Source: Dimargaris cristalligena
Taxonomy: Eukaryota
Length of the DNA: 59,150 nucleotides
Reading direction: 5' to 3'
Assembly: GCA_003614675.1 (NCBI GenBank)
Contig: ML002248.1
Span: 1-59,150 of the forward strand
Program-made: the position numbers and the translations under genes
Part shown: in pieces, positions 55 to 59,150 of the stretch
Position numbering within the stretch: position 1 is the first letter of the stretch
Layout: each line of letters begins with the position of its first letter
Notes under the pieces: generated by a model
Told to the model about the DNA's origin: nothing
What the model saw: the letters and a program-made list of their open reading frames with translations, nothing else
Databases searched by the model: none

Positions 55-57
<3 letters not shown>

Positions 58-28300: not shown

Positions 28301-31300
28301 ACGACATACTGCGCTGTCAGTTCACTCAGGACGTTTCTCATTCTCCCAACCGGTGGTCCCAATGTATACTGCCGCCGTTTGCCAGCCTTCCCATTCCCGT
28401 GGTGGAAGTTACCGCCCCTTTGTCCGATTGCCCCGGTCATTTCCTATCAATCCAGTCATCTCTTGACATCTCCCAGGGCCACCACATGGCTGCGGGCCTT
28501 ATTACTCTCTCGGAGCATAATATCGACTCATCCTCCGATACGGTTTCTCACTTCGCGGTGTCATCCCAGGCATCCCCTCGGCAGTTGTTATACTTGACTA
28601 TCCACCATTTGGTAGTCGATTTGGTATCCTGGTCCATTTTATTAGAAGATTTGGCGCGACTTTTAGATGGACAGTTGCCCGTCCCGCAGCATCTCTCGTT
28701 TGTTACCTGGGCAACTGAGTTGGTCGACTGGGCCAAAGAAACTGCTCATGTCGCTGATTTATCACTTGCCCCAATGATATTGGCATCCTTTTTACCCCTC
28801 AGCAGTCCCGACGCCTTGGCATTCAATACCCAGCGTAATTCGCAATATTTGTCCATCACCTTGGATAAAATTAATTCGGATGCTCTGCTAGGGGCCTATG
28901 ATCTACCTATCCAGCCTTTGGAACTGATGTTTGCTGGCATATTTCAGGCCCTGTACTCTCTGACCCAAGCGTCAGCCCTTTGCGTTTTCAACGAATCCCA
29001 TGGCCGCCATTCCTGGGAATCCAGCCTTGATCCCAGCCATACCGTGGGCTGGTTTACCGCTCTAGTACCCTGCCAGGTTCAGGCTGACGCTGGCACATCG
29101 ACCTCAGATTTCCTTAAACTGGCCAAACAGGCCCTCCGTTCGTCGAATGGCACCAATGGATTGCAATATGGTCTCCAGAGAATAGTAAACTGTTCTAAGG
29201 TTGAAGCCTCTAATGACCGGCCCTATTTGCCGATTGAGGTCGTATTCAACTACCTAGGGCACACAATGGACTACGGCACACTGACCCAACAGGGTCGTGC
29301 CCCCTGGGCCCCTCGCCCCGAATTGACTGCCGGTTTGGCGGTTTGTGATGCCGATGAGCTCCGTACCCAGATATTGGAAATTATTGGTTATCCAACTTCC
29401 GAGGGTCTGGTATTCATGGTCCGATATTGTCCCCAGGTCATAGCAACAGGCATTATTGAGTCACTATTGGGCTGCTTCCGAGACTCCCTTGTCGGTATGG
29501 TGCAGGCCATCCAACAGTCCCCTAGTCCCCCACTTTGGACTCCAACGGACTTCCCTGACCTACAGGCCACTCTGCCAGAACTAACCAAACTTGAATCTGA
29601 GCTTGCCACCATTGGCCTTACTCCACACGATGTTGAAGATCTCTACCCCATGTTACCCATGCAGCAGGGCATGTGGACAGCCACGGCCAAGGATCCCTCT
29701 GAATACCTGGTCCAACTGGCCTTTACCGTTACTGGAGTATCAAACGTCGACCGACTTGAGGCGGCCACTCAGGCAGTTGTGAGTGACTACACCGTTTTGC
29801 GCACAATGTTTGTAACCACCTGGAGTAATTTCCATTGCCAAGGTGTCCAAGTAGTGACCCGAGAACCACGATTTGGTTGGCAGATCATTAATGAGTGGTC
29901 AGACGTAGATTCCATTTGTGAGGCTGATTTCATGCAGTCCAACAAAAGGCGCGGTTTCGGGCCCAACGAACCCCTTCTCCGAGTCCTTGTTAATCAGCTG
30001 TCGGCCAACGTAATCCGTTACTTATTATCCATCCACCATGCACTAATTGACGGGTGGTCCATCGGGATTCTGATTAGTCGGCTCCGGGCTCATCTTCAAA
30101 ACAATGCAGGAATCCAGCTGGTGCGACCCCCTGTATTCCGCGACTATGTAGCACATCTGCAAAAGTCTAGCAAAGAAGACGCGAAATTGTTTTGGTCGGA
30201 GTACCTACGAGGTATAGAGCAGCCAACGGATTTGGAACTCCCCAAGCCTGCTCGCAAATGTAATTCACCAATAGCTGAACTAAAAATGACACTCTTCCAG
30301 AATGTTTCCCCAATTACTCAGCTCGCTCACCGTATGGGGATCACTCCCTATGTCCTTGTAAAATCCGCCTGGGCTCTTCTCTTGAGCCGCTATACTGGTC
30401 AGCCTGATGTCATTTTCGGCAATACTGTGTCTGGTAGAGCACTGCCCCTTGCCGACATCGAGTCCCATCTAGGGTGTCTTATCAATACGGTTCCATTCCG
30501 GGTTCATGCTGACGAGTCCATGTCGGTGGCTCAATGGGTCACTGCTATACATGACAACTCCCAACAGGTTATTTCATTCGAGCACCACCATATATCGGAG
30601 ATCAACACATGGGTCGAAGGAGAAATTCGGCCAAGTGACCTGTTCAATACGCTCGTTGTGTACGAAAGCTACCCTGAAACGGAGATAAATGACCGAGATC
30701 ATTCAGTTATTTTTACTGATACCGAGTTTCTCGAATCTAGTGACTATCCCCTTACACTAGTAGTCCTGATGGAGAAGGGCCAACTTAACGCTTGCTTGAA
30801 ATGGAACTCGCAACAATTTGGCTCGACTTATATTGATGTCATGGCAAGACACTTGTTCACTCTATTCAATGGGCTGGTCTCCGCCTTATCCGACACCGAT
30901 GGCCAAGTCCGCGTACAGGATTTGCCCATGCTTTCGCCCAACGAGCGAGCCGTTGTAATCGAGAAATTTGCTAGTCGTCACCTCACCATCGACCCCGGTG
31001 CTTGTGTGCCAGACTTGTTTACTAGATCGGCTCAGATCAGACCAAATGTTATTGCCGTGGAGTACGAGGACACTAAATGGACCTATGCTTATTTACACAG
31101 CCAGGCGCTCAATCTAGCCCAGCGACTGCTAGTCCGAGGGGTCCCGCGTGAAACACCCATTGGCCTGCTTATTGACCGGATTCCCAGTACAATTGCGGCC
31201 TTTATGGGCTTACAGTTGTCAGGGGCAGTTTTGGTTCCCCTGGACCCTACTTTCCCCATTGAGCGTATCAGGTATATTGTGGAAGACTGCAACATTGGCC

Positions 31301-34300
31301 TAGTTCTTACCAACATGGCGGACCAGTCCAAACTGGACACCATTCACCTAGCCCTCACCCAAGTTGAAATCCAACCGATCGACCCGTTGCTTTTGCCCCT
31401 TCAACTAGCCCAGGACCAACTACCTATCCTCCCACACATTCACTCCTCTGACCTTTCCTATATAGTGTATACATCAGGAACTACGGGCCGGCCCAAGGGT
31501 GTCCAAATCGAACATTGCCTCATGGGCAACTTTGTCCAACAATTGGAATCGACAGTTGGTATTTCCGCTGGCCTGCGCTTGATGCAAAATATGGCGATGA
31601 CCTTTGACGGTGCCCTACTTGAGATATTTACCAGCCTATGCAAGGGGGCCACCCTTGTTCTTAGGACGGATCTGTTGGACACACTACCCAAGGTGAATGG
31701 TTTATTCGCCACCCCTACTGTACTGGCTTCTCTTGATCCGACCAAATATCCTAATCTACAAATGGTCATTTCCGGTGGAGAGGCCCTTCCTCAAGAAGTA
31801 GCCAAACGCTGGGCCCATCACTGTCGAGTGTTCAACATGTACGGGCCCACCGAGGTTCTGGCCTCACACACAGTCGAGTACAGACTCGGTGACGTCATGA
31901 CTATTGGTTACCCGGTACCTAATACCCAGGGCTATATCCTCGACCGCTTTTTGCACCCCGTTCCGATCGGGGTGCGTGGTGAAATCTACGTGGGTGGCGC
32001 ACAAGTCACACGGGGCTATGTCAACTTACCCGGCCTCAATGCCGCGAGATTAATCCCCAATCCTTTTAGTGGGTCGGGTAATATGTACCGGACAGGGGAC
32101 TCTGCTCGCTGGCTACCCAATGGTACGGTTGAGTACTTTTCACGGCATGACGACCAGGTGAAAATTCGTGGTCATCGAATTGAACCCCGGGAAATCGAGG
32201 CGGTCCTTCTCAGCCACCCGGATGTACAGAGTGCCGCTGTGGTCATTATTAGCCAAAGTATCTATGGCTTTGTCTGCCCTGCTTCCGTTTCCATTGGATC
32301 CATCAAATTGCACATTGGTCGGATTCTACCAGCCTATATGAACCCCAAAACCATATTTATTATTGAGATGCTACCCTGCAACACCAACGGCAAGACCGAT
32401 AAGCACGCCTTAGCTACCCGAATCGCCGAGTTAACCGTAATGACTACTGGACGTGCCATCACGGCCCCGCTTAATTCAGTCCAGGCCCTAGTTGTAGAGG
32501 CCCTCAGCCAGACCTTGGATATACCCAGTGTTGAGATTGACATTTACGACTCCTTTTTCCAGCACGGCGGTGACTCGATTTCGGCCATCCGCCTGTCCTC
32601 CCTTTGTCGAGACCGCGGTCTATACTTATCCATCGCCCAGGTATTCAAGTGTAGTAATATCATCGAGCTGGCCGAGTGTGCTTCTGATCACGCCATGTCT
32701 GACAATCTACCAGAAGCCCACAACTTTGCCCACTATGAGCCCTATAGCCTACTTGGAGAAGTGGGTGATCCTTCTTCGGTCGTGAAATATCTCCTGCACG
32801 AGGCATCCTCCCAGCTGAAGATGGATTTGGACAATATTACTGATATTCTACCGGCTTCTGGGCTTCAATTGGGCTTTCTCATCAGTACCCTGAAAGACCC
32901 GAGTGCGTATATGGTACAGGAATCTTTCACCATTTCCGGGGACTTAGACTTGGATCGCCTCCAGCAAGCCTGGTACCTGTTGGCTGAGCACCATGATATC
33001 TTGCGAACAAAATTCTTCCGACCTGAATCTCTATCAAGTCACTCCTTCCTCCAGGTCATCACTAAGCGGTGCGACATTGAATGGTCAGTCCATACAGATA
33101 TAGTCGACGACTGGTCCACACTGGAGAAGACTTATTTTGAAATTGACCGTCGTCGTGGGTTTACTTTCGACGGACCACTATTACGGATGGGCTTCTTCAC
33201 CTCACCGGCCACTGGCGATCTCCGGCACTTGTGTTTCTTGACCTTCCACCATGCCCTACTCGATGCCTGGTCTCAGAATATTGTGTTGACCCAACTGGTT
33301 GACCTATACCACGGTACTAAGCCTACCCCCTCTACCCAGTTTAGTAGTTACATTTCCCACCTCCAAAGCACCAACCCATCACAGCTCCAAAAGTTCTGGC
33401 AAACGACACTAGAGAATGCCCAATCCACCCCACCTATACATTTTCCTGTTCACCTCCCCGAACCCCTGGATTGCAATTATGGAATATATCGAACCACACT
33501 GTCGTTAAATCTGTCTAGCCTGCACGCATTCTGTCGCCAGCAAAGCATTACCCTCAATTCCCTCCTGCGTAGTGTCTGGGCTCTTACCCTGTCCCGCTAC
33601 CTTGGCTTGTCCAGTGAAGTATCCTTCGGGGTTCTTACTTCCGGTCGCAATGTTCCTGTACCAGGTGTCCAGGAAATGGTGGGCATGTGTATTAATACTA
33701 TCCCGTTCCGAGCGTCACTTGACCAATCGACCTCTGTTACCAATTTTGTCCAGCGTTTGCATCGCCAATCCGGTGAACTGACGGCATCTGAGCAGTGTGG
33801 TCTTGTAGATATATACAAATGGGGCCAAATCAACTCCGAAACCAAGCTCTTCAACTCCCTGATGATTTATGATAACTTCCCGCCCTCCGCACCCAGCACC
33901 TCTAACCCCGATATCACCCTCGAGCTTAGTGATGTACAAAATTTTACCGAATACGCCTACACCGTCAGTTTTTTTGATAACAGCGATAATCTGGACTGTC
34001 ACTTGGTTTACGATATGACCCACTGTGACGATACCTATGCTTGCCATTTGATTCGGTTTATCGACCATTGCTTGTCAATGATGGTACATGCCCCGTGTCT
34101 AAGTCTGGGTGAGCTCATGATCCTTCCAATTGATGAGGCCCAGCTCGTACACGGCTGGGCCCAAGGGCCTGTGCGTGAATTCCCCCAGAAACAATGGCTG
34201 GCCTATCGGCTGTTCAGTCAGCATGTCTCCTCCAGATCCGAAGCCGTCGCCCTTGAGACCTCAAATCACCGATTTACCTATGCCGAGGTTTACCATCGGT

Positions 34301-37300
34301 CGTGTTGTATTGCCCTGACCCTCCAGCAACGCGGATTCAGCCCCGGTAACCTTGCCGCCCTGATCTTTACCAAGTCAGCTGATTTTATATTCAGCTATCT
34401 GGGAGTCCTTTTGGCCGGTGGCGTGTGTATCCCAATGGATGCAGGCAATGCCCTTGACCGCCTACAATACATGTTTGGGTTGTTAGACAGCCCGTGGCTT
34501 ATGACCACTGTTAGCCATTATAAAAACTGCAGCGATCACATTTCGGTGATGGACAGTCAGTGCTGCTTTGTCGATACCATGGACTACAGTAAGATTGTTG
34601 TCGATTTGTTCCGGCCGGATACCTCTCGCACGTCCTCGGACTTGGCCTACATTGTGTTCACGTCAGGGACCACCGGCCGGCCCAAGGGAATTCCCGTGCG
34701 GCATGAGTCACTCGTCAACTTTACCGTATCAAATTGCGAAACCATCCAGCTTGACACTGAGTGCCGTTTCCTACAATTGCTGAATATTTCATTTGACGGG
34801 TGCCTCCTCGAAATCTTTGGTGCATTCCATTGTGGAGGTACGCTAGTACTCCAGGATGGGAATCTTCTCGACACCCTAACTCGGGTTGACACCTGCTTCC
34901 TCATTCCATCAATGCTGTCAGCCATTGATATCGAGACGTATCCCAATCTAAAAACAGTATTCATTGGTGGCGAACCTGTTCCACTTAATATCGCCTACCA
35001 GTGGTGTGAACGTGTCCGCTTATTCAATATTTACGGACCAACGGAAATCACAATCGTGTGTCACACTGACCAAGTATATAGCAGTGAGCCGCTCTCCATC
35101 GGCCGTTCACTAGCCAATACCCAAGGGTATGTCCTTGATGACCAGCTCCAACCCGTGCCTGTAGGTGTCCCCGGAGAACTTTGCATTGGTGGGGTTGGGG
35201 TCAGTTCAGGCTATTGGAAGCAACCTGAACTCGCTGCCAAATCCTTTGTTCCTAATCCATTCGGACCAGGTTGCCTGTATCGTTCTGGGGATATGGTTTG
35301 TTGGCTTTCCAGTGGCAAGATTCAGTTCATTTCGCGTAAAGACTTCCAAGTCAAACTGCGCGGTTATCGTATCGAACTGGGCGAAATCGAAAACGTCGCC
35401 TCGTCAGTGGATGGAGTTACCAATGCGATAGCCTGCGTATCCCAACAGCAACTCATTCTCTATATAGCCCCCGGGTCGGTTGACACAGGGGCCCTCAGGA
35501 CTCAGCTTACCGTCAAACTCCCGCAGTACATGGTGCCTAATTTCATCATTCCACTGGATTCCATTCCCATGACCACTGTAGGTAAGGCTGATCGCAAGAC
35601 TCTACAGGCACGGGCATTACCAGAAGATACCACTGATGAAGCCATTGATATTGACTCGTTGTCTTCGATTTTTCAACTTATGCGAGCGGCCTTGGTCGAC
35701 ACCCTCAAGATTGATCCTCAACGGGCCACTCCATCAGCCTCGTTCCTCCGACTTGGTGGGGACTCTATTTCAGCCATTCAGTTTTCCAACCGCTGTAAGC
35801 GACTGGGCCTCCGACTTTCAGTAGCCGATATTCTTAAATACCCCCAGTTATCCGTTATGGAACAGCGCGCCCATATGGTTGACACCAATAATCTACCGAG
35901 TGCCCAGTTTATAGATCCCGCCGGGCCGATTCCGTTTACTGCCGTGCAGCGATACGCCTTGAAGCAATATCGGTTTATCAACCAATTCAACCAGTCCATG
36001 CTTCTCAAGTGCCGCCAGACCCTAACTCGCACCACTCTTGCCCAGACTCTGACTACGTTGATGGCTCATCACGATATTCTTCGGGTCCAACTTGAGCATT
36101 CCAATGGACAGTGGCAGCAACGGGTGATATCTATACCCGCCGGCTCATCTACTTGGTCAAACAGGTTCTTATCCATTGAGGAAGCCACGCTCACCCTCGA
36201 TGAATACCCTGCCTGGGTGAGTCAAATACAGCGGAATATTTCCATTGAGCACGGGCCGATAATGGCCTGCGGCCTATTAATGTTGGATGGTGAGCAGCAT
36301 ATTTACCTGACTATTCACCATTTTGCGGTCGATTTTGTCTCCTGGCGGATTATTCTCGAAGACTTGGAAGCCCTGTTGACAAACCAGGATTTGCCCGCCA
36401 AGACTATGCCGTTCCGAGACTGGGCCACCCAGGTCCATACTTTTGCGCAGACTCTGTCCGAATCAATCTGGCCAGTGGAATTCACACCAGCTGACTCCAT
36501 CCCCCTGGACTATCCATTTTCATCTGCGAGTGACCTAGGTACCCCTCTCGCAATAACCTACCATTCGTTCGAAGTCCAACAAGCATCACTTGGCCTCGAT
36601 TTGTCCGACACTCTATATACCGAGGTTTCCCCTACCGTAGGGGCTTCACCTCAAGAATTTCTGATAGCTTCTCTTCTTCTCTCTCTACAAAAAACCTTTG
36701 GACTTTCCGTAATCGAGTTAGAACTGGAAGGCCATGGTCGTCGGACCTGGGACTCTGCCATCGACATCAGCCGTACGGTAGGCTGGTTTACCTCCATCTA
36801 CCCAGCTTTATTCCACCTGAACCAGGCGGAAACCCATCATGCTTTTGGACACACCTTGGGTTCCTTGGCCCTAGTCAAACAGCGCATGCGTTCGATTCCC
36901 GACCATGGCTTCCCGTATAGTCTCCAGCGCTACCTCAAGGGCACCTCCCCTTTGTCGGCTCCGGCTATCAATAGGGCGGCACCAGAAGCGGGCATGGTAC
37001 CTTCAGATGACTGGAACCGTATAACGTTCAACTACTCAGGACGGTTCGAACAGCTGGAGGCCCAGAATGCATTCTGGCGCCCCCACCACATCGAAATGGG
37101 TTGGACCGACGATTGGAGCAAGGACGAGGTTTTCAGTCGCGCACTTAGCGTGGCCTGTGACTATACGGTTGGTGAAGGCCTCGTACTTAGTGTAATGTAT
37201 TCTAACAAACTTCACCATAACATAACAATCCAGCGATTGGTCGATCAGTGGCGTACCTCTCTCGAAGAGCTCATTCTCGAATGCAAGGTTGTTCCTGCAC

Positions 37301-40300
37301 CATCCATTGTGACAGCTAGCGATTTTTCTTCGGCTCAACTTACTGAATCGGATTTTGCCAAGATGGTTCAGGATGACTTACCCTTATTGGACTTGATATT
37401 GGCCGATATTGAGGACATCTACCCCTGCCTACCAGTTCAAGAAGGTCTACTGTTTGCCACCCTCCAGGACCCGGCCGCTTACATGGTCCAGCTAGGGTTC
37501 AATATCAGTGGCCAGCTTAATGTCGGTCGCTTTTATCAGGCGTGGAACCAAACTGCGCGAGATCACCCAATCCTTCGTACGCGCTTCTTAACCGCCAGTG
37601 GGTGTGATGCCAGTAAGAACCTCCAGGTTGTGGCTAGGGATTTTAATGCCCATTGGCTTATTCGAAGCTGGGAGAAGGACTGCGCTGATACTATGCGAGA
37701 CCAATTCTTCCTTCAAGAGCGGACTACTGGATTCAACCCCGACCAGCCTTGGATCCGGTTTGGTCTTTTCCGGACGGCCCCTAATTCATTTAAACTATTG
37801 GTTTCGGTGCACCACGCCCTGATCGATGGCTGGTCCGTCGGGTTGCTACTCCATAGTGTCTGCTGTAACTACTTCGAGGACCCTTTGCCTAAGGCAGTAC
37901 ATTACCGTGATTTCGTTGACTATATTGGGAACCAAGATAATGCCGTGGCCAAGCGGTTCTGGTCCGATAAATTTTCTGGAGTTGGAGAGCCAAGTTTATT
38001 AGTACAAGCGAATCATCATCCCGCCTTCCCAGCCCTGCGACCCAGTGACACTGCATTTTATGGAACCGTCGAAAGGTCGGTACCGATTTTGGAGAAGATT
38101 AATAAGCTGATTAGTACCAATGGAGTTACCCTTTCGACCCTTTTACGAGTAGCAATGGCGGCGACTCTTCACCGCCACACCGGATCTACTGACCCAGTAT
38201 TTGGTGTGGTGGTCTCGGGCCGGAATGTCCCTGTGGAAGGTGTCGAGAACATCATTGGGGCGTGTATCAATACCATTCCCTGCCGAGTGGCCCTGGGTAA
38301 CAATCCGTCAGTCCGGGATATTCTACAGGCCGTGTACGCGACGAGCACCCAGACCCACGGTTTCGAACACTGTCGGCTTACGGATATCCATCGCTGGAGT
38401 GGCCTTAGTCAAGATCGTCCGTTATTCAACACCCTCCTGGTACTGGAGAACTACCCGGAAACTTCAGCGAATCCGAATCTTCCGTTTCAATTGGAACTTG
38501 ACAGTTACTGGGATCCCACGGACTTCCCACTTGCTGTCATTGTCCATACCCAAGGAGATCAGCTCCAATTTCGAGTAACCTACCGGACATTGGATTTTAG
38601 CCCCGAGTTCATTCACTTATTTGCTGACCATTTCATTACCACATTATCGTGTCTACTGTCTGCCGACGCCAGTAGCCCACTTTCAGATATTCAGATTCTA
38701 AGTCCACTCGAACGCGAACAACTGCTGGTAAGCTGGGCTACCAATCCTCAGGATTTCCCCCCAGTCTTGGCTCATGATCTCTTCAGCCAACAGTGTCAGA
38801 GTGAACCACACGCCGTGGCTCTCATCCATAACGGCCAAAAATACACCTACACGCAACTGGATATGGCTGCTAATCGACTAGCCCACTCACTGGTCCTATT
38901 GATACCCTGTGGTTCCGACCGTATAGTGGCTTTAGTTGCCGACAACTGCCCGGAACTCATTATAGGGCAACTGGCCATTTGGAAGACGGGCTGTGCATTT
39001 GTTATTTTGGCGCCTGACTATCCCCTCGAGCGACATCAATTAATCTTGAAAGACACCCAAGCGATCGCCATTATGGGCAAACCCTCCTGTCTCTCCGCTA
39101 TAGACGACCTCGGACTAAATGTACCTATGATACCGATAAACAGTGATTCCCTTTTTACAGATGGGACAACGAACGTATATCTATCGCCGGCCATTGACCC
39201 CTCCCATTTGGCGGCTATCATCTACACATCGGGCTCGACTGGTATCCCCAAGGGTGTCATGCATGAACACCACGCACTAGCCAACCACTGGCAGGGTATG
39301 GGTAGTATTACTAACATGACACTCGGTGCCATCACTCCAACCCTCGTTACCCCCACCTTTGATGTGTCCCTATCCGAGATATGGTCCACATTGTCCTTTG
39401 GCGGTACCCTTCTAGTAAGCCAAGGGGATTACGAAAGTGCCCTTTCTCAGGCCACTCGAGCCTGCTGCACTCCTTCCCTACTGTCCAGCTTTGAACCGGC
39501 CAATTTCCCCAACTTACGCCAAGTTACTATTACGGGTGAGCCAGCCAACCAAGGAATAGTAAATAGATGGGCCGACTCGGTTGACCTCATCAACTGGTAC
39601 GGCCCTACCGAAGTGGCCTGCGGATCCCACTGGTTCCGACTCCAGGCCAACAAGAAAATAATCCCCATCGGTGCTCCACTGCCCAATGCCACTGGCATTA
39701 TCCTAGACACCTACCTGCGTCCGGTCCCTGTCGGTGCTGTCGGCCAGCTCTACTTAGGCGGCCGTGGTGTGGCCCGTGGCTACCTCAACCGCCCCGAACT
39801 TACCCAGGAGAAATTTATTTTGAGTCCATTCACTAGTGAGCGCATTTACCAGTCGGGTGATTTGGCCCGCTGGCTACCCAATGGCCAGATTGAATGTCTC
39901 GGCCGGATTGATAATCAAGTCAAATTGCGGGGGTTCCGGATTGAACTAGGCGAGATTGAGAGCGCCCTGGAACATCACGCCGCCGTGGCCCAAGCCTGTG
40001 TTGTTATCCAGGACGACACCCACTTGGTCGGCTACATCGTTCCCCCTTCTGGCCAATCAACCGCTATTCTGGACTCTTTAAGATCCCGGCTACCCTACTA
40101 CATGGTGCCCTCTGTCCTGGTGGAACTTGCCGAATTACCACTGACCCGGGTGGGTAAAGTGGATCGTAGGACCCTGCCCAAACATGACTTTGCGGCCATT
40201 AGTAACAGCCACAAGGCCGCCCAAGTCAGTCCAGCCGAAGCCCAACTCATTGGCCTAGTCGCTGAAACCCTTCGGATTGATCCGAGTGTTATTTCACCAG

Positions 40301-41787
40301 CGGCCACCTTTTTCCAAGTCGGTGGCAACTCCCTGTCGGCAATCCAATTAGTATCCCGCTGCCGTCGCCTGAACCTTCAGCTGGCCCTAATGGATATCAA
40401 CCGATCCAATACGATTACCTACCTTGCCGAATTAACCTCCGCTACGTCCGATTCCATCGAAGTATTTGATAGGGATGCCCCTGTTCCCGCTGATTCGGAA
40501 TCACGAGCGGTACGACTCACCCCACCCCAGGTGGAGTTGTTCGACCTTCAACTAGCTGACCCTCACTTCTTCCCGCTAGCCACCATGTTTGAATCCAGTG
40601 CTCGATTTAGCCCTGAGCAGTGGCAAGCCGCCTGGACTAAGGTGGTTCAGCGCCACGATATGCTCCGGGCCCGTTTCCTGTCCATCGACGGGAAAACAGT
40701 GACCAAGTTTGCCGATTTGGATGATCTATCGTCCACCTGTTTTAAATATCACCAAATGACGGATATCCGCGATGCGCTGGCCCAACTCAACAGTATTAAC
40801 CACCTGATTAATTTTGAGACCGGTCCAATCTCCCAGATTCGAGTATTCGATATCAATGGCGTTCAATACGTCTACATTGCTGTCCACCACCTGGTCTTTG
40901 ACTATCTGTCAGTCCAGATTGTCCGGGAAGACCTTTCGGCCTTTGTAACAGACCAGACTGTGGAACCTCTGACCCATTCATACAGGGCGTGGGCAGACCA
41001 CCTCTGGTCCCTGGCCCAGTCCGTGGACCCAATGAGTATCGACTTACTTCCATCCGTCTGTATTCTGTCTTCTGAATTATCGGTGGATGGCACTCCAATG
41101 ACCAACGAAACCCGGGAACGTGTGGTGGTCCTAATCGATCAGAATGCGACCCATCGCCTCATGACCACTGTGGCGCAACAGCTCGGCGCTACGCCCATTG
41201 AATTAATTTTAACGACCCTGGTTTGTGCCTACTACCGCCAGTTCGGACTATCCCAGATGGACATGGCATACGTAGGTCATGGTCGCAGAGATCCCCGTGG
41301 CCAGTGCGATGTCTCTCGGACTGTCGGGTTCTTTGCCTGTCAGCTTCCACTAGTTTTCCAGGGAGCAACGAATGGCAATCTGATGGACACACTGCGTGCC
41401 GTTCAAAGCACGTTAAGCACGGGCGTAGATAACGGGTTCTTATATACAGTAGTCAAGAATTTACATTGCTTCACCAAGGATCAGGTCGAACTACAACAGC
41501 AGTTTGATGTACAACCCCAATTCGGCTTCACGTATTTAGACGACATGGCTGTTCGTGATTCGTCAGATGCCGATATTATCTTGGTTGAACGGTCAGCGAT
41601 GCTTAACGACTTGCGCACTGCAAAAAGCCAAAACAAGTACCCGTATTTACTCGACTTTGGGGTGTGGAACACCACAGAGGGGTTGGAAATTATTACCAAT
41701 TTCAACTCGAGGCAGTTCCGAATGGATACCATGAGGGCGTTTAACTCGCATTGGAAAGAATGTCTTCTCGAAGTGTCCCAACTTTAA
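19387..41787 (+). CDS. Multimodular nonribosomal peptide synthetase, 7466 aa, intronless
   Basis: Five intact A domains (SG[T/S]TGxPKG, YGPTE, [T/S]GD and a terminal GK-x-D lysine) at about 20190-21600, 26410-27810, 31000-32420, 34200-35610 and 38770-40180. T domains with GGDS at ~21760, 27976, 32566, 35755 and GGNS at 40321. C domains HHSHLDGWS (22381), HHALIDGWS (30034), HHALLDAWS (33247) and HHALIDGWS (37810). E domains HHLVVDLVSW/ESHGR/TVGWFT/FNYLG (~28150-29520) and HHFAVDFVSW/EGHGR/RTVGWFT (~35930-37290). Degenerate A-T-C at ~23330-26310. E-like terminal domain at ~40510-41780. Confidence 0.98.
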   Translation: MVAFASAPISHSMGFLLPVVPMEYQPDIDLPLGKPRTNPPGYAAWCYGVSFPDLDLLHHDQFKQGCQLAMATLLSRYYRQPAVAFAHWQGPVGPNIFVDQFNGELDLVLARMNPDTPVSAISLQHLAPDYLPTLSGPVVEVVLHSDADGSSTLTPMSETNIGYNQPKEVEANSHITELLAQSTAHLVVSCALGQGHFQITVTYARALYRDSAVAEFTSQFGTVLQAVAQALLDDQPTLVREIPWVSDRELARLSDFSHSGQPTRAIGRPVHHLFGDCAQLYPDHLALVDGSNEWTYAQLDYASSELARVLVAQYSACPEVRFALLIPKSIAYMVTILAVLKSGAAYVPLDPDYPTDRIQFVLEDSDASLLLVDESSFGRVASQFNVPTMTVNPFVQQPISGVLSDFQPFLSAPSDLAYVIYTSGTTGRPKGVLIEHRGVANFATDPYLRREYGPGRRVYQAGSVAFDGILVNTFRALCAGGTLVIPTDNILEDLQNIHVGTLTTTFLSRLDPKGFTNLETLAIGGESLLPDQQARWTPHCILANHYGPTETTVYSNLAAIGRDDDITIGRPIGNVINLVVDDELQLVPVGVPGELLIGGIGVARGYQNLPELTAQKFIPNPYGEGRVYRTGDYVRWLSNGTVEFLGRIDNQIKLRGYRIEIEEIENVASQFPGLKQCVAAVVEDTLVLYASPEDLEPTSLLDYLKDRLSKQMVPELVVPVPNFKTTILGKLDRRSLPSIGHLLSKNSFLSPTGSDTNGPQSEAEEDLRRVWGKVLQRDPGRIGTTDHFFKVGGDSISAILLVSECRQLGYQLTVSLIYQYPELFQMAAQVQHLSSIDNINGVQFSLSEIEFQQVTEELGHRGISSSEVEVLLPCIGVQGGLLVGLGVDPSAYTVQISLKLNGSLDYHRLTQAWNAVASQHPPLRTVFVESSAKRSQGFVQAVIRSPSDVWTLGNKPLACLDSFFTNNLRRGFVLQELMIRNFVFPTADSQVHDVVISAHHSHLDGWSMSLLLQAWMAAYHHPEILAPSPLISFPTVVEYLSQMDNTQAGEFWSTYLRNAHSTPAPMLFPGSSGASGSATYYTVIDIPKTQMQQFTQSVGITLATLFRAAYALVLSRLLDQDDVIFGVILSGRNLDLLGMDQVIGLCINTLPFRACLGQSPLYSWLQSLHQAQSNMIQFEHSTLPDVTRWASTGQSGPLFHTLLGFENYNGYAAEPSHHITLSDLRVHEATEYPLTVDFLVQSTDIQAKALYSTSTYSEEAIRHLVGMIQTAVEQIILAQPGTTVDQLTLMTSPSSHSIVYDQEEFSAASALPAQSLAKTWDTIILEYSEHPVYISKGHVLLYGQLDHLADGLALQSGQILKVPRPSIMALVESVEQYMVCLVSAVKMGARLTLLAPPCTIDQLVVCVNLTASQIAWLPSAKAEEIRPFLKGVVPLITVPSAIDESISRTLAPRGFKPLIDRQDPSLTFTSKKNSDDLVLSTINGSCIRCTLASTHHYTSDKAGIIIDHSLSLDTPQAAWLILSSLTSHATVLSHTSPLDEHTKSSSCHVMTADALHSDLGESNRLVLCDLAQAHQSDCISLVKSTDICISFIESIFHGYQQVTKEQLTSQSFPTADKPSNNYCLDVLDGHGHPCPPGAVGRLTFTSPVPLDHSAPQKYLILGYRADDNRIHMLGPDSQRVVVKGQHIHLGILTRALTEAGALSPQCIVLPDGRPVALIANTAEVDLTRLKEFATPPAIPLALVPHAIISIYAFPHVAGLSDHHLAFFVQAYLTTLTLRHSESLLETEWWLTVVVNELCASPSHSNDYTTTSLLRTSSEATLVQLEMFQYRIRIKFGINMPLGDLVKHAELRTLASTLLDRINRLPSAYSGDSGVEEVSISVPVSSQLNLRSQAVTDRQHQIWSLSRLGHTPSDFYHQCVITSEVPLQLEVVQRAVNNLSATFESLRCQFISVRGALTCTVLPQVRTGISETQLSTSQSLSMDKLFSDEVKFNLDRGVLSQVNLYHFPTTTEGGAASAICLRIHDIAADWQMFSKMVNHLTMGLYGISPNNSEPLVTKLNPGYHAVKGTDTSYWTTLLSDPPTELTLPLDHARPLLPSFRSATVHLTIEPKLVSSLASLKSAGPFAQGDIWLALFAVFLRRLTGQDDIVIDYCGLEDPPNGQVGGSTEQPATNLPVRCSGNWPAHIPQLAENINLQRHQSMSHPIPSIDFYSSFVDHLGLNRLSSSLARVRISLHQGSHEKSGTNGSQITYPDNSQSLFPYDLELVIRESTLGHSCHLLFNPDILESSTAKRLLSNFLHYAQECLCSEMSWSDASTVSTKESRVLLQEFALGGLHPDQMAVESPAGVLCQFNRMAALYPNCSATEISGQVWTYLDLVDRIHLVAAGLRDAQIQPGDKIGVIVTNHPNTVAGMLAAWVVGAVYVPVDHKLPVKRQKYVIEAACCKVVLNATDSPSQLPNTLVLSELLEGNGDFGNRSNIYNSRPDDLAYVIFTSGSTGLPKGVMVTHSNLDHQVGNPVFQDFQVAGQRVMAGTAPGFDVFILNSLLPLCNGSTLVFYGDNLAETLRQVDQTWLVPSVINRLNPSDYPNLKKLCLAGEPLSRELVDKWSIIPDIYNGYGPTETTIISHFTRVPPTGTIPIGPPIFNYECYILDSQLQLVPIGAIGEILIGGVGVSCGYINRSDLNPTAFIENTFTGRGKLYRTGDLGRWLTNGQVECLGRMDSQIKLRGFRIELDEIRSVLMRQLGVQNCVVFVHGQFLVGYVFPESAANSNGLHIALADSLPSYMVPSYFMGLPTVPLTANGKCDTKFLQSHFTEYLASQRKQAPSSNLALDLSSRPLGALTEALADVLGLALAQINIQLSFVKLGGDSISAIQVSSKCRQLGFTLPTSMILGSKSLCELVGSMEVISPTVGQTALHQPIQYRTPFPFTPVQQWFFDHPWRNPHHFNQSFALELTQTLSAPQIESALLRLINHHDILRCQFTQDVSHSPNRWSQCILPPFASLPIPVVEVTAPLSDCPGHFLSIQSSLDISQGHHMAAGLITLSEHNIDSSSDTVSHFAVSSQASPRQLLYLTIHHLVVDLVSWSILLEDLARLLDGQLPVPQHLSFVTWATELVDWAKETAHVADLSLAPMILASFLPLSSPDALAFNTQRNSQYLSITLDKINSDALLGAYDLPIQPLELMFAGIFQALYSLTQASALCVFNESHGRHSWESSLDPSHTVGWFTALVPCQVQADAGTSTSDFLKLAKQALRSSNGTNGLQYGLQRIVNCSKVEASNDRPYLPIEVVFNYLGHTMDYGTLTQQGRAPWAPRPELTAGLAVCDADELRTQILEIIGYPTSEGLVFMVRYCPQVIATGIIESLLGCFRDSLVGMVQAIQQSPSPPLWTPTDFPDLQATLPELTKLESELATIGLTPHDVEDLYPMLPMQQGMWTATAKDPSEYLVQLAFTVTGVSNVDRLEAATQAVVSDYTVLRTMFVTTWSNFHCQGVQVVTREPRFGWQIINEWSDVDSICEADFMQSNKRRGFGPNEPLLRVLVNQLSANVIRYLLSIHHALIDGWSIGILISRLRAHLQNNAGIQLVRPPVFRDYVAHLQKSSKEDAKLFWSEYLRGIEQPTDLELPKPARKCNSPIAELKMTLFQNVSPITQLAHRMGITPYVLVKSAWALLLSRYTGQPDVIFGNTVSGRALPLADIESHLGCLINTVPFRVHADESMSVAQWVTAIHDNSQQVISFEHHHISEINTWVEGEIRPSDLFNTLVVYESYPETEINDRDHSVIFTDTEFLESSDYPLTLVVLMEKGQLNACLKWNSQQFGSTYIDVMARHLFTLFNGLVSALSDTDGQVRVQDLPMLSPNERAVVIEKFASRHLTIDPGACVPDLFTRSAQIRPNVIAVEYEDTKWTYAYLHSQALNLAQRLLVRGVPRETPIGLLIDRIPSTIAAFMGLQLSGAVLVPLDPTFPIERIRYIVEDCNIGLVLTNMADQSKLDTIHLALTQVEIQPIDPLLLPLQLAQDQLPILPHIHSSDLSYIVYTSGTTGRPKGVQIEHCLMGNFVQQLESTVGISAGLRLMQNMAMTFDGALLEIFTSLCKGATLVLRTDLLDTLPKVNGLFATPTVLASLDPTKYPNLQMVISGGEALPQEVAKRWAHHCRVFNMYGPTEVLASHTVEYRLGDVMTIGYPVPNTQGYILDRFLHPVPIGVRGEIYVGGAQVTRGYVNLPGLNAARLIPNPFSGSGNMYRTGDSARWLPNGTVEYFSRHDDQVKIRGHRIEPREIEAVLLSHPDVQSAAVVIISQSIYGFVCPASVSIGSIKLHIGRILPAYMNPKTIFIIEMLPCNTNGKTDKHALATRIAELTVMTTGRAITAPLNSVQALVVEALSQTLDIPSVEIDIYDSFFQHGGDSISAIRLSSLCRDRGLYLSIAQVFKCSNIIELAECASDHAMSDNLPEAHNFAHYEPYSLLGEVGDPSSVVKYLLHEASSQLKMDLDNITDILPASGLQLGFLISTLKDPSAYMVQESFTISGDLDLDRLQQAWYLLAEHHDILRTKFFRPESLSSHSFLQVITKRCDIEWSVHTDIVDDWSTLEKTYFEIDRRRGFTFDGPLLRMGFFTSPATGDLRHLCFLTFHHALLDAWSQNIVLTQLVDLYHGTKPTPSTQFSSYISHLQSTNPSQLQKFWQTTLENAQSTPPIHFPVHLPEPLDCNYGIYRTTLSLNLSSLHAFCRQQSITLNSLLRSVWALTLSRYLGLSSEVSFGVLTSGRNVPVPGVQEMVGMCINTIPFRASLDQSTSVTNFVQRLHRQSGELTASEQCGLVDIYKWGQINSETKLFNSLMIYDNFPPSAPSTSNPDITLELSDVQNFTEYAYTVSFFDNSDNLDCHLVYDMTHCDDTYACHLIRFIDHCLSMMVHAPCLSLGELMILPIDEAQLVHGWAQGPVREFPQKQWLAYRLFSQHVSSRSEAVALETSNHRFTYAEVYHRSCCIALTLQQRGFSPGNLAALIFTKSADFIFSYLGVLLAGGVCIPMDAGNALDRLQYMFGLLDSPWLMTTVSHYKNCSDHISVMDSQCCFVDTMDYSKIVVDLFRPDTSRTSSDLAYIVFTSGTTGRPKGIPVRHESLVNFTVSNCETIQLDTECRFLQLLNISFDGCLLEIFGAFHCGGTLVLQDGNLLDTLTRVDTCFLIPSMLSAIDIETYPNLKTVFIGGEPVPLNIAYQWCERVRLFNIYGPTEITIVCHTDQVYSSEPLSIGRSLANTQGYVLDDQLQPVPVGVPGELCIGGVGVSSGYWKQPELAAKSFVPNPFGPGCLYRSGDMVCWLSSGKIQFISRKDFQVKLRGYRIELGEIENVASSVDGVTNAIACVSQQQLILYIAPGSVDTGALRTQLTVKLPQYMVPNFIIPLDSIPMTTVGKADRKTLQARALPEDTTDEAIDIDSLSSIFQLMRAALVDTLKIDPQRATPSASFLRLGGDSISAIQFSNRCKRLGLRLSVADILKYPQLSVMEQRAHMVDTNNLPSAQFIDPAGPIPFTAVQRYALKQYRFINQFNQSMLLKCRQTLTRTTLAQTLTTLMAHHDILRVQLEHSNGQWQQRVISIPAGSSTWSNRFLSIEEATLTLDEYPAWVSQIQRNISIEHGPIMACGLLMLDGEQHIYLTIHHFAVDFVSWRIILEDLEALLTNQDLPAKTMPFRDWATQVHTFAQTLSESIWPVEFTPADSIPLDYPFSSASDLGTPLAITYHSFEVQQASLGLDLSDTLYTEVSPTVGASPQEFLIASLLLSLQKTFGLSVIELELEGHGRRTWDSAIDISRTVGWFTSIYPALFHLNQAETHHAFGHTLGSLALVKQRMRSIPDHGFPYSLQRYLKGTSPLSAPAINRAAPEAGMVPSDDWNRITFNYSGRFEQLEAQNAFWRPHHIEMGWTDDWSKDEVFSRALSVACDYTVGEGLVLSVMYSNKLHHNITIQRLVDQWRTSLEELILECKVVPAPSIVTASDFSSAQLTESDFAKMVQDDLPLLDLILADIEDIYPCLPVQEGLLFATLQDPAAYMVQLGFNISGQLNVGRFYQAWNQTARDHPILRTRFLTASGCDASKNLQVVARDFNAHWLIRSWEKDCADTMRDQFFLQERTTGFNPDQPWIRFGLFRTAPNSFKLLVSVHHALIDGWSVGLLLHSVCCNYFEDPLPKAVHYRDFVDYIGNQDNAVAKRFWSDKFSGVGEPSLLVQANHHPAFPALRPSDTAFYGTVERSVPILEKINKLISTNGVTLSTLLRVAMAATLHRHTGSTDPVFGVVVSGRNVPVEGVENIIGACINTIPCRVALGNNPSVRDILQAVYATSTQTHGFEHCRLTDIHRWSGLSQDRPLFNTLLVLENYPETSANPNLPFQLELDSYWDPTDFPLAVIVHTQGDQLQFRVTYRTLDFSPEFIHLFADHFITTLSCLLSADASSPLSDIQILSPLEREQLLVSWATNPQDFPPVLAHDLFSQQCQSEPHAVALIHNGQKYTYTQLDMAANRLAHSLVLLIPCGSDRIVALVADNCPELIIGQLAIWKTGCAFVILAPDYPLERHQLILKDTQAIAIMGKPSCLSAIDDLGLNVPMIPINSDSLFTDGTTNVYLSPAIDPSHLAAIIYTSGSTGIPKGVMHEHHALANHWQGMGSITNMTLGAITPTLVTPTFDVSLSEIWSTLSFGGTLLVSQGDYESALSQATRACCTPSLLSSFEPANFPNLRQVTITGEPANQGIVNRWADSVDLINWYGPTEVACGSHWFRLQANKKIIPIGAPLPNATGIILDTYLRPVPVGAVGQLYLGGRGVARGYLNRPELTQEKFILSPFTSERIYQSGDLARWLPNGQIECLGRIDNQVKLRGFRIELGEIESALEHHAAVAQACVVIQDDTHLVGYIVPPSGQSTAILDSLRSRLPYYMVPSVLVELAELPLTRVGKVDRRTLPKHDFAAISNSHKAAQVSPAEAQLIGLVAETLRIDPSVISPAATFFQVGGNSLSAIQLVSRCRRLNLQLALMDINRSNTITYLAELTSATSDSIEVFDRDAPVPADSESRAVRLTPPQVELFDLQLADPHFFPLATMFESSARFSPEQWQAAWTKVVQRHDMLRARFLSIDGKTVTKFADLDDLSSTCFKYHQMTDIRDALAQLNSINHLINFETGPISQIRVFDINGVQYVYIAVHHLVFDYLSVQIVREDLSAFVTDQTVEPLTHSYRAWADHLWSLAQSVDPMSIDLLPSVCILSSELSVDGTPMTNETRERVVVLIDQNATHRLMTTVAQQLGATPIELILTTLVCAYYRQFGLSQMDMAYVGHGRRDPRGQCDVSRTVGFFACQLPLVFQGATNGNLMDTLRAVQSTLSTGVDNGFLYTVVKNLHCFTKDQVELQQQFDVQPQFGFTYLDDMAVRDSSDADIILVERSAMLNDLRTAKSQNKYPYLLDFGVWNTTEGLEIITNFNSRQFRMDTMRAFNSHWKECLLEVSQL

Positions 41788-42982
41788 ATACCTCTTGCTT
41801 AATTTAATCGTATAGTACGCTGCACTTGACTATTTTTTTGACCAGCGACACCCTCTAATTATGTGTTGTCACTAAACGCAAATACGAGCCAGTACGGTTA
41901 ATCAATATACTATACTTGGTATGATGCTGCCCAAACACGCCCTTTTTATGTACTATAACCAAGTCCCATTAATTCCTAAAGCTTTTTACGTGATTTGATT
42001 TTGCCGATTATTATATTATTGCCTGCACGACAATTTATTAACTAATTTCGATACATAATAGGGGAGATCAGTAAACTGGTCGCGGAGATATGGCTAAAAG
42101 AGAAACTGATTTAAAAAGAAAGAAGAGAAAAGATAAGGGAAAAGAGGGTGGTCTGCAAGGCCGACTGGCCCTATATTGTTCTATTGTCGTTGGTCAATAA
42201 AGGCGGGGTCCCCTCTACAAAAGGGGGACACCGTCTCATTCTGGCATACCTTTCCCCATCACCTGATTTATATTCTACAGCGAAAAGGACTCGCCACTTA
42301 TTATTACATTCCCGAGCCCCTTTTTTGCACCTCCTGGTCTTACTCCAATCTATACTATCAGCTATATTCCTTCATTTGGGGAGATGTCGTCGTATCCCCA
42401 GCATATATCTTTGATTTCTATTTTGCCTCTTTTCTAGCTATTTTTTGACGTTTTACCGTCGAATTGTATTCTCCATTTGAAATAAAGTGTTGTTACGCTC
42501 CTATCTTTATTCGAACAAGGTACGCTTGTCTGCCTGTCCTCGCTAGCACAATACAACAACCGTACCCATCATTGAAACTCTCTCTCTCTCTCTTTTTTTC
42601 GCTCTTTAAACTCGGCAAACACGCCAGCATTTACCATTAGGAAGCCGGCCTTGACGATATTAGCCTGAATGATATTGCCCTCTGGCTATAATAGAAGATT
42701 TCTTTAGTTTATTAACGAATACAGGGCGAAATTGGGGATGATCAATGGGCACTATTCAATAAGAATCAAATCCCTTTATTGACAACGATCCCATTAACCA
42801 CCCTAAATTATTTAAAATGCGATAGCCATCTCTCCTCTGGCTCGCATGGTCCATTAGAATATTGTGTAATATAAATATAAACTGGGTGGTCCAGATGAAA
42901 TGCAAAATAATGCAGACAAATTATCGCTGGATAAAGGCAACCAATGCGTAGAATATGCCTGTTGATGGTACCATTAGGAGAG

Positions 42983-44513
42983 CTAAGTTCCAGCCTCTAG
43001 TGATGCACGAGGGGTCTCGCTGGTTTGATCCACTTTAATATCGGCCGGCACTTTCAGGGAGTCGGAGAATCGGGAGCTGACGTTGGGTTCGGGGGCCGGC
43101 CTTAAATTATACACAATGATGCCGATGATGATTCCCACGAATGCGAACGGATAGAGCACGTGGATCTATTTGAAATGTCGGAAATGTAGCCCACGGGACG
43201 AACGGACATGGTCGGAGAGGCATTGCAAGGGATGTCAACAAAGACATACCACCACACACGTATCAAATAGTGGATAAGAGGCGGTATCGATGTTAGTACG
43301 GGTGACCGGAGATTAAAGGTCATCTTTCGGATCAGTCTGGAGCCTAAATATGGCCAGTAAGCCCAACACTTAGGTATATTCGTTTTAAGAATAAATCGAA
43401 GGAAGGGCCAATTATGGATTTTAAACTTACCCGGTAATGGAACAGGAAGAGGCCAAACAGGAGCCCGTAGAAATCCGAGGTTAGGAGGGAGATGTTAAAG
43501 AACGTGGCGGAACTCAGGCGGAATAGGTAGGGAGTGACCGAATACATGGTAAATAAACTGAGATCAAAGAGAACCACGTAAAGCACGGCGGGGCGGGTCC
43601 ATTTGGTATTCGCGATTTCATTACGTTCTAAAATGGCCAATTGAATCCCGTTGACAATAGTCCCAAAGAACCCCAAATGGCCAATGACTTCGTAAATAGG
43701 GAACTGCCGCACGGAAAATTCCTCGAGAATATTGGAGACACCGTAGAGGGTAGCACCCAATAAACAAAAGAGGTCGCCTTTGAGGGGGTTGGAGCCGGCG
43801 TAGTCCCGGTCGGTGATGGAGTCGGCCACGACTAGCAGAGCCATACCGACGAGGCATACGAAAACCCCGAGGTACTGGGTAATATGAAAGCGCACTTTAA
43901 GCAGTAAATAACTAAGGACCACCACCACGGGGATCGCCCACGTGTCCAGCAACATGGCGCTCAGCAGGGAGGTGTATTGGTAGGCCTTGACCACAAAGTA
44001 GTTGCCCTCCACGTCGACAATGGCCAAGCCCAAATACATCCAGCCCCGCCGCCGGAGAATGCGCATCCAAGTCCGCCACCCTCGCCGATAAATAGTGTAG
44101 GGGAGGTAGACGAGGGTTAACAGGACGTAGTTGAGGAAACTCTGGGTGGTGGGGATACTCACCCCATGCTCCTGCGCCAATTGATTGCATACGGAGGTGC
44201 TGGTAATGCAGAGGGACAGCAGCTGGCCAATGGCGAGAATGCGAAGGGTGTGCCGCCAGTCTTGGGGACAGAGGCGGGACTTGACCCAGGCCCAGCGGGT
44301 CAGGGGTTTCTTGGGTTGCTGGAATCCGGCCAGGTCCGGGTCGTTGCTCGCGGAATGGGTGGAAGAGTCGCCGTCACCAGTAGCCTGGGTTTCCCCACTG
44401 GGCCGGCCGGGACCAATGGACAGTACTTCGCACGATTCAACTGTAACTCCAGGAAATGCACTAAGGGTGCCCTTTTTGGTGTCCAACGAAGGTGGGTCGG
44501 GTTCAACTGCCAT
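42983..44513 (-). CDS. SLC35F1/F2-family (DMT superfamily) solute transporter; 2 exons, ~421 aa
   Basis: Exons 44513-43431 and 43165-42983 (GTAAGT...AATAG). Motifs GQLLSLCIT, PTTQSFLNY, DVEGNYFVVKAYQYTSLLSAMLLD and SSATFFNISLLTSDFYGL. Exon 2 supplies the last TM helix (IHVLYPFAFVGIIIGIIVYN). Confidence 0.92.
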
Positions 44514-49004: not shown

Positions 49005-49160
49005 AAGATAATGAATCAGGGTGTATACCTAAATCGTCTATTACACTATAAGATCTTAGTGGTCCGCTGGGCCATATACATGTATCTCAAATTTGTCTAG
49101 TACGTTCGCCCTTTTAGGGTATCAATTGGGAAGCAACGGATACAATACCCGCCTCCAATA

Positions 49161-59109: not shown

Positions 59110-59150
59110 CTGGTGGGGGGGGATAGGTATTGAAAGGGATAATGGTAATT

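Follow-up and report, generated by a model that had tools for sequence, protein, structure and literature searches.

A terminal domain of epimerase descent in Dimargaritales nonribosomal peptide synthetases, a candidate for chain release

An NRPS of Dimargaris cristalligena ends in an epimerase-derived domain

Dimargaris cristalligena is a mycoparasitic fungus of the Dimargaritales (Kickxellomycotina). The stretch of its genome analysed here (assembly GCA_003614675.1, contig ML002248.1, positions 1 to 59,150; hereafter the window, 59,150 nucleotides at its full length) carries a single uninterrupted open reading frame (ORF) for a nonribosomal peptide synthetase (NRPS) of 7466 amino acids (aa), labelled P0001. 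The last domain of this protein, for which we use the name E*, extended to the clade to which it belongs, is derived from epimerization (E) domains. It is shared by a family of NRPSs found only in Dimargaritales, has replaced residues that canonical E domains conserve, and may, as we tentatively propose, release or cyclise the finished chain. Pfam, a motif scan and a purpose-built hidden Markov model (HMM) of the condensation superfamily gave the domain order (C remnant)-A1-T1-C1-(degenerate A and C)-A2-T2-E1-C3-A3-T3-C4-A4-T4-E2-C5-A5-T5-E*, where A, T and C denote adenylation, carrier and condensation domains. The terminal 455 residues of P0001 are 100% identical to D. cristalligena protein BJ085DRAFT_36903. 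The features that bear on the terminal domain are as follows (nt, nucleotide position).

19387..41787, + strand: NRPS ORF P0001 (Pfam, motif scan, purpose-built HMM)
28114..29535, + strand: E1, canonical internal E domain (HHLVVD, ESHGR, FNYLG) with a C domain next (motifs, profile, tree)
35872..37314, + strand: E2, canonical internal E domain (HHFAVD, EGHGR, FNYSG) with a C domain next (motifs, profile, tree)
38824..40221, + strand: A5, adenylation domain of the termination module, about residues 6480-6945 (Pfam AMP-binding; A3 motif at nt 39223)
40234..40431, + strand: T5, the last carrier (GGNSL from nt 40321, Ser codon 40330-40332)
40432..41784, + strand: E*, the terminal domain, residues 7016-7466 (sequence, profile, fold, trees)
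nt 40516, + strand: LTPPQ motif (motif scan)
40885..40902, + strand: HHLVFD, the E2 or HHxxxD motif, with H7167, H7168 and D7172 (motif scan)
41272..41286, + strand: VGHGR, the E4 motif, with V7296 in the canonical Glu position and H-G-R kept (motif scan)
41308..41334, + strand: DVSRTVGFF, the E5 core; relative to canonical RTVGWFT, Trp is changed to Phe and the next Thr to Ala (sequence)
41527..41541, + strand: FTYLD, the E7 motif; relative to FNYLG, Asn is changed to Thr and Gly to Asp (motif scan)
41785..41787, + strand: stop codon immediately 3' of E* (sequence)
41788..43343, no strand: intergenic DNA that separates the NRPS from an SLC35F-type transporter gene, with no domain (ORF and Pfam scan)

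In the motif scan, HHLVVD and ESHGR of E1 lie at residues 3073 and 3203, and HHFAVD and EGHGR of E2 at residues 5644 and 5781. An earlier note on this DNA, made from the sequence alone, had described four motifs in the last domain (HHLVFD, VGHGR, DVSRTVGFF and FTYLD), a Val where the internal E domains have the Glu of ESHGR and EGHGR, a retained His, a preceding carrier with GGNS, and no thioesterase (TE) or reductase (R) domain thereafter. All four motifs lie where that note had put them (HHLVFD at nt 40885, VGHGR at nt 41272, FTYLD at nt 41527), the Val is V7296 and the His stands in HHLVFD, and GGNSL begins at nt 40321. The statement on TE and R domains also holds, because the frame ends directly after E* and the downstream ORFs scanned carry no Pfam domain: nine of them, 52-130 aa long and taken from the 21 stop-to-stop ORFs (40 aa or more) that overlap 41788-43340, gave no Pfam match better than E 0.07. 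A communication-mediating (COM)-type tail is likewise absent, the protein ending 4-5 residues beyond the E core (E-domain alignments reach 450-452 of the 455 query residues), and by sequence and the downstream ORF scan E* is followed neither by a DCL domain nor by a COM tail leading to one on the next subunit, the setting that PMC11546977 describes for E domains.

The terminal domain belongs to the E clade by descent

To place E*, we compared it with known domains by sequence, profile and fold. Its assignment to the E family goes well past what chance would give: the Pfam Condensation match is at 2.5e-32, and 10 of its 11 matches among PDB sequences (E <= 0.001, best 1.6e-26) are chains that hold an E domain, from BacC, TycA, GrsA, TycB3 and PvdL, with CmnI as the eleventh and last. 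Like E1 and E2, it matches the E-specific NCBIfam model TIGR01720, which two C domains tested do not, at a score of 34 bits that lies, as do those of E1 and E2, under the curated cut-off of 74.2 bits; it also matches, again like both internal domains, positions 2791-3167 of PRK05691, the E region of that model.

AlphaFold2 yielded a model of E* with a predicted local distance difference test score (pLDDT) of 78.5 and a predicted template modelling score (pTM) of 0.78, from a 12-row alignment made from full-length proteins (9589 columns) that served the fold alone. With this model as query, Foldseek placed E domains at all of ranks 1-13 (TMq 0.75-0.81) and, among the matches listed, other C-type domains, an X-domain and a terminal C-like (CT) entry at TMq 0.62-0.68. 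VIA-align agreed, with E domains at ranks 1-11 (Z 31.6-38.9, root-mean-square deviation 2.5-3.1 over 405-417 residues) and, among the matches listed, all non-E domains at Z <= 30.8, including HtmB2-CT at 28.6 and the X-domain at 26.5. The CT domain of TqaA appears neither in the PDB sequence matches nor among the fold matches listed, which means only that it ranks lower.

A first tree (LG+G4, with Shimodaira-Hasegawa-like approximate likelihood ratio test (SH-aLRT) support) was built from 99 C-type domains of 12 Dimargaritales, 4 Dikarya, 1 chytrid and 3 bacterial NRPSs. It split E from C domains with a support of 100 and gathered 12 of 12 Dimargaritales terminal domains into one clade (99) within fungal E (97), whereas the four Dikarya terminal (CT) domains formed a clade of their own (100) that adjoins the Dikarya DCL domains in the C superclade. 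A more careful tree of 53 rows (LG+G4, ultrafast bootstrap (UFBoot)/SH-aLRT), with five terminal domains added, again united all terminal domains, now 17 of 17 from four Dimargaritales species, in one clade (100/99) held by fungal E (98/96); E and the C outgroup separate at 100/100, and this outgroup join is a meeting of long branches. An internal E domain of Tieghemiomyces parasiticus that had stood as sister of E* in the first tree (95 SH-aLRT) falls into a polytomy in the careful tree.

Sequence, fold and trees thus show that the terminal domain belongs to the E clade by descent, as the earlier note had proposed when it called the domain E-derived. The same note had suggested an origin apart from the Dikarya CT domains, had named a phylogeny as the way to check it, and had set down beforehand that a grouping with canonical CT domains would speak against it. 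We examined exactly this grouping with the approximately unbiased (AU) test, run after the tree had been seen: forcing E* and CT into a single clade costs 173 log-likelihood units (p-AU 3.4e-6). Since the joint clade is rejected, the domain does not group with canonical CT, and the trees support the view that E* arose independently of the Dikarya CT domains.

E* is a conserved terminal family found only in Dimargaritales

E* is a conserved, lineage-wide terminal family, found only in Dimargaritales. A phmmer scan of 1.84 billion representatives returned 13,153 matches at E <= 0.001, which were re-scored per domain; those above about 125 bits per domain are all C-terminal and all from Dimargaritales, and canonical E domains score below 100 bits. 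Four species carry the domain, namely D. cristalligena, D. verticillata, T. parasiticus and Dispira parvispora. The relatives comprise P0003, P0122 and P0123/P0267 in D. cristalligena (P0123 being a second gene of the window's strain), P0005 in D. verticillata (from the phmmer scan), and P0124, P0268, P0125, P0127/P0271, P0128, P0146 with its relatives, P0149 and P0186/P0275 in T. parasiticus. An E* profile, scored on proteins of 987-2815 aa, reaches 528-732 bits in Dimargaritales only; the next scores are 235 bits, for P0395 of D. verticillata, and at most 213 bits, for bacterial E proteins.

In all 12 Dimargaritales proteins found by E* similarity the domain is terminal, lying within 80 residues of the C-terminus. 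A separate search with A5 was dominated by multi-module bacterial proteins and added nine Dimargaritales fragments, two of them from Dispira parvispora; these fragments are skewed to last modules because the query was A5. Seven of the nine run beyond the last T and all seven go on as T(GGNS)-E*, the other two ending earlier. Wherever the protein end is intact, E* is the last domain. The near-full-length proteins P0001, P0003, P0124 and P0268 start with A-T and end with E*, and because of this start they look like complete assembly lines; the precomputed Pfam lists of the near-full-length proteins hold no TE or R domain. Terminal-position matches from outside the Dimargaritales, those bearing names being bacterial, keep xE[GAS]HGR[ED] in 53 of 54 cases.

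One T. parasiticus entry, P0394 (1349 aa, named '26S proteasome subunit yta6'), consists of a T(GGNSL)-E* piece fused to an AAA ATPase, most likely two adjoining genes merged by annotation.

E* keeps the His motif and replaces other epimerase residues

For a residue comparison we set 16 E* sequences, numbered after P0001, against 29 canonical E domains (Dimargaritales internal, Dikarya, chytrid and bacterial), in which 42 columns are at least 85% conserved. E* keeps 29 of these columns and replaces 13. HHLxxD, the H-G-R of E4 and W7202 are kept in 16/16 each, and the kept columns also include the D..RT.G.F of E5 and the F.Y of E7; HHxxxD is also present in P0395, which stands outside the 16. 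The catalytic Glu of EGHGRE (V7296 in P0001), found in 29/29 canonical domains, occurs in one of the 16 E* sequences (2/17 counting P0395). The Asn of FNYLG (T7382 in P0001) falls from 28/29 to 2/16, with the Tyr of this motif kept in 14/16; this Asn is reportedly important for catalysis, from a mutational study of GrsA. The canonical Trp after HHxxxDxxS (column 7176) is in none of the 16, and the canonical NQS motif (columns 7063-65) in 0-2 of them. Further replaced columns are L7068 (to Phe), W7104, V7174, G7385, W7315 (mostly to Phe), T7317 (to Ala) and K7340 (to Gln). Several replacements are themselves conserved (Pro7065, Ala7317 and Gln7340, each in 13/16), and W7079, V7153, Y7161 and P7059 are invariant (16/16 each) and private to E*.

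Replacements at the Glu site are variable and mostly hydrophobic (V, M, L and others). Along the careful tree, the members branch in the order P0124, which has Gln at this site and still has FNYLG, GWFT and a GGDSL carrier; the Dispira protein P0294, with Thr; a D. verticillata pair that keeps Glu; and a derived subclade (100/99) whose 13 members all lack Glu. Given this order, Glu was lost three times, or lost once and then regained, and under either history the site is, to judge from the sequences, under relaxed constraint ever since the domain became terminal. P0395 of D. verticillata shows a pattern of its own, in which Glu is kept but the His of HGR, constant elsewhere across E and E*, is replaced by Asn (ESNGRS).

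The E* domains of P0001 and P0003 share 72% identity, inside the 57-81% range of the catalytic domains of this pair. Lower values are seen for E1 (57%), C3 (57%), C4 (64%) and A2-A4 (61-70%), and higher ones for E2 (75%), C5 (78%), A5 (81%) and T5 (88%). The kept motifs, the conserved replacements, the private invariant residues and this conservation among paralogues together point to a domain that would have changed function rather than decayed. As a further observation on this pair, identity climbs toward the C-terminus, from about 57% (E1, C3) to 81-88% (A5, T5), a rise that may come from paralogues exchanging the termination module by recombination or gene conversion.

A specialised carrier and last adenylation domain accompany E*

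The carrier ahead of E* reads GGNS[LI] in 23 of 25 cases, the exceptions being P0124 and P0268, whereas carriers ahead of canonical E domains read GGDSI (17/17) and those ahead of C domains GGDS[IL] (13/13). This pattern argues that the carrier in front of E* has co-evolved with it. Upstream of this carrier, A5 shares 55-81% identity with its counterparts in the last modules of other Dimargaritales NRPSs. A single conserved type of last A domain (FDVSxSEIW ... NWYGPTEVAxGSH) recurs in D. cristalligena and in most of the T. parasiticus E*-ending proteins compared; that of Dispira is a close variant, and the basal E* lines P0005, P0124 and P0395 do not have this type. It may be that the derived terminator always acts on the same last residue. 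Because the types of both carrier and last A domain are conserved, C-A-T(GGNS)-E* behaves as a termination module.

Surroundings of the gene and other parts of the protein

Outside the NRPS, the window holds the following genes.

3295-6084: P-type ATPase
8450-9445: Suc_Fer-like protein
43344-44621, minus strand: SLC35F transporter
49943-50956: kinase
52499-53527: M20 peptidase
56384-57235: ATG27
contig end: helicase

These neighbours are ordinary cellular genes, and no classical secondary-metabolite cluster is visible in 1-19000 or 43344-59150. Among the flanking ORFs scanned, which cover the 59-kb window only, there is no hydrolase, no enzyme of the penicillin-binding-protein (PBP) type and no second NRPS.

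Several further features of P0001 concern its other modules. Residues 1-270 (19387-20196), ahead of A1, give a sub-threshold match to the C-terminal end of Condensation (E 0.044) and may be the remnant of a starter C domain. Between C1 and A2 lies a degenerate module (23275-26500, residues ~1297-2371), in which a weak match to AMP-binding (E 0.0058) precedes one to Condensation (3e-19) with the motif IHDIAAD; P0003 and P0124 share a similar stretch of about 900 residues without recognised domains, and the degenerate region seems to be conserved. Module 1 has no E domain, and its C1 (21943-23274, residues 853-1296) groups with DCL-type domains as sister to P0003_DCL_1315 (support 100). At this place its relatives P0003 and P0124 have A-T-E-C, and an in-frame loss of about 480 residues seems to have removed the E domain from module 1 of P0001.

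Gene models also differ from the ORF. The deposited model P0002 (7319 aa) is 147 residues shorter and is without the GGDSI of T2; the introns predicted in it are probably spurious. Several relatives likewise have domains cut by their gene models, for example P0003 at about residues 5890-6360.

A possible role in chain release

Release in fungal NRPSs is thought of as the work of CT, R or TE domains. The conserved terminal family and the coordinated loss of epimerase residues make another route more plausible, and we put at roughly 45% the reading that E* is a Dimargaritales-specific chain-terminating family, derived from a fungal E domain, with a role in release or cyclisation. E domains work with one bound carrier and no acceptor, and so offer a plausible start for a terminator. 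On this reading, the full-length peptidyl thioester would sit on the specialised T5 (GGNS) and reach E* by the donor side, the route taken in PCP-E didomains. The second His of HHLVFD (H7168), as general base, would then activate a nucleophile rather than take up the C-alpha proton. Most likely this nucleophile would be the peptide's own N-terminal amine, with water or a small acceptor as possible substitutes, and the chain would leave either cyclised to a macrolactam or in linear or capped form. Without the opposing Glu (V7296) and the Asn (T7382), the two-base apparatus of the epimerase would be gone and the pocket would be more hydrophobic. E* would in this way be a functional analogue of the Dikarya CT domain, reached from a different branch of the condensation superfamily; in CT domains a His activates the nucleophile that attacks the thioester (PMC10510592, PMC11546977).

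Several points weigh against such a role. The E* clade is not uniform, two D. verticillata members keeping Glu, and the catalytic His is kept in E*. Retrieval was biased, by similarity either to E* or to the last-module A domain, and many of the relatives are partial gene models or near-duplicates. We know of no E-clade domain that has ever been shown to release a chain. The GrsA variant E892A is about 6-fold less active, retaining some one sixth of its activity, and H753A is dead, as reported in PMC8905534; because the loss is only about 6-fold, a change of Glu to Val by itself is compatible with continued epimerisation. Finally, bacterial lines that end in T-E are unloaded in trans by PBP-type TEs, which, according to PMC11735501, need a C-terminal D-residue.

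The same observations bear on the reading that survives best beside release, namely that E* is still an epimerase, working with the His alone or with another base, and leaves a D-configured C-terminal residue on a chain that is released in trans by an enzyme whose gene lies elsewhere (a SurE-like PBP-type cyclase or a hydrolase) or spontaneously. HHxxxD, HGR, the E5 core and the E7 Tyr are all kept, the GrsA variant and the Glu-bearing D. verticillata members speak for it, and bacterial T-E lines with trans release are an established precedent. The absence of E from module 1 of P0001 fits too, as an L N-terminus and a D C-terminus would form a heterochiral ring-closing pair (PMC11735501). The same logic, however, predicts an L C-terminus in P0003 and P0124, which do have a module-1 E. 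Against continued epimerisation stands the breadth of the change: Glu and Asn, present in 29/29 and 28/29 canonical domains, are lost from 15/16 and 14/16 E* sequences together with 11 further E-conserved columns, while 53 of 54 non-Dimargaritales terminal-position matches keep Glu. The replacements at the Glu site are varied and mostly hydrophobic, unlike a substitute base, and among the flanking ORFs scanned in the 59-kb window there is no PBP-type or hydrolase gene to provide release in trans. We regard continued epimerisation as unlikely on balance, though a serious contender.

Less probable again, and in our view quite doubtful, is that E* is a catalytically silent scaffold or recruitment platform that brings a tailoring or release enzyme to the last carrier in the manner of an X-domain. 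There is precedent for a docking surface of C/E-like type in the X-domain (PMC10510592, PMC11546977), many E-specific residues are replaced in E*, and the upstream T is specialised. The motif of the X-domain, however, is degenerate (HRxxxDG, PMC11546977), whereas HHxxxD is invariant in the 16 E* sequences and present in P0395. The E* model also resembles E domains more closely (Z 31.6-38.9) than it does the X-domain (Z 26.5), and no partner gene is seen nearby among the flanking ORFs scanned.

A hand-off of the chain to another NRPS subunit, as by the terminal E domains of TycA, GrsA and SrfA, with P0001 as part of a longer line, is highly improbable. D. cristalligena does have 27 NRPS genes (PMC6784888), and in bacteria a terminal E domain on a subunit as a rule passes its product to a DCL domain of the following protein (PMC11546977), but P0001 ends 4-5 residues past the E core without a COM-type tail, the near-full-length Dimargaritales proteins start with A-T and not with C, the epimerase residues needed for a hand-off are lost, and the window holds no second NRPS. 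Equally hard to credit is a decaying, functionless relic with uncatalysed release: the catalytic Glu is lost and its site varies among members, but E* is one clade across four species with many paralogues, keeps 29/42 E-conserved columns and has private invariant residues, exceeds E1, C3, C4 and A2-A4 in P0001/P0003 identity (72%), and shows no stop or truncation wherever the contig continues.

If E* is a release domain, a wider claim may be considered, which we advance with somewhat more reserve than the role itself: that it could be a fourth built-in NRPS terminator beside TE, R and CT, a His-dependent catalyst of macrocyclisation or release that is paired with a GGNS carrier and, in the derived subclade, with a conserved last A domain, and whose module would have spread through the large NRPS expansion of the mycoparasitic Dimargaritales. 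The condensation superfamily would then have reached chain release twice, from different branches, and E* would offer a natural experiment on the residues that turn a C-alpha base into a nucleophile-activating base. Release mode decides the shape of the product and is also a main engineering handle. Current predictors would label E* as 'E' and would therefore mis-predict both product stereochemistry and release mode, and the domain flags a whole set of uncharacterised peptides. Should E* prove to be still an epimerase, it would be a distinct E subtype and a pointer to a trans-acting release enzyme in early-diverging fungi.

The abundance of NRPSs in this order has been described before. Ahrendt et al. 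(2018) reported that D. cristalligena has 27 NRPS genes, which belong to two lineage-specific expansions and mostly stand alone on short contigs (PMC6784888); Tabima et al. (2020) counted 21 NRPS in the same species (PMC7466969); and Reynolds et al. (2023) found the Dimargaritales to be NRPS-rich and reported, for T. parasiticus, 89 proteins of the NRPS and NRPS-like kinds (PMC9866270). In the full-text literature, supplements aside, we found no description of an E-derived terminal domain in Dimargaritales NRPSs, and the text portions of PMC6784888, PMC9866270, PMC7466969 and PMC10478498 do not mention the terminal domain. E* would thus be new here, as a subtype of the condensation/epimerization superfamily that is restricted to one lineage and occupies the terminator position.

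Comparison with known systems

With canonical E domains (TycA 2XHG, GrsA 5ISW/5ISX, TycB3 6TA8, PvdL E2 and BacC 9RDE), E* shares its clade, its fold and the motif order E1-E7. It keeps HHxxxD, the HGR of E4, the RTxGxF of E5 and the FxY of E7, and it sits right after a carrier. Unlike them, it has replaced the NQS motif, the Trp that follows HHxxxDxxS, the Asn of FNYLG, the Glu of EGHGRE and nine more conserved columns; it lacks a following DCL domain or COM tail, and its upstream T reads GGNS instead of GGDSI.

Bacterial NRPSs that end in T-E, as in surugamide-type systems served by SurE-type PBP thioesterases, resemble the E* lines in ending without TE, R or CT. Their terminal E keeps the full EGHGRE (Glu in 53/54) behind a GGDSI carrier, whereas E* has lost epimerase residues. 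The SurE-type trans cyclase needs a C-terminal D-residue (PMC11735501), and the scanned ORFs of the window show no such partner.

The X-domain of glycopeptide NRPSs (Tcp12, 4TX2) is, like E*, a domain of the C/E superfamily that stands at the end of the line and has left its ancestral chemistry. Its motif is degenerate and a TE follows, whereas E* has HHxxxD intact and is the very last domain; the fold match between the two is at Z 26.5.

The Dikarya CT domain of the TqaA type, represented here by the terminal domains of P0004, P0039, P0065 and P0108 (the last named as a malformin synthetase), parallels E* in position. Both are the last domain after the final T, both lack an acceptor module, and both keep the His of an HHxxxD-type motif. 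Their ancestry differs: the Dikarya CT domains lie in the C superclade with the Dikarya DCL domains and E* lies in the E clade, and the solved CT entry HtmB2-CT matches the E* model at Z 28.6, as against 31.6-38.9 for E domains.

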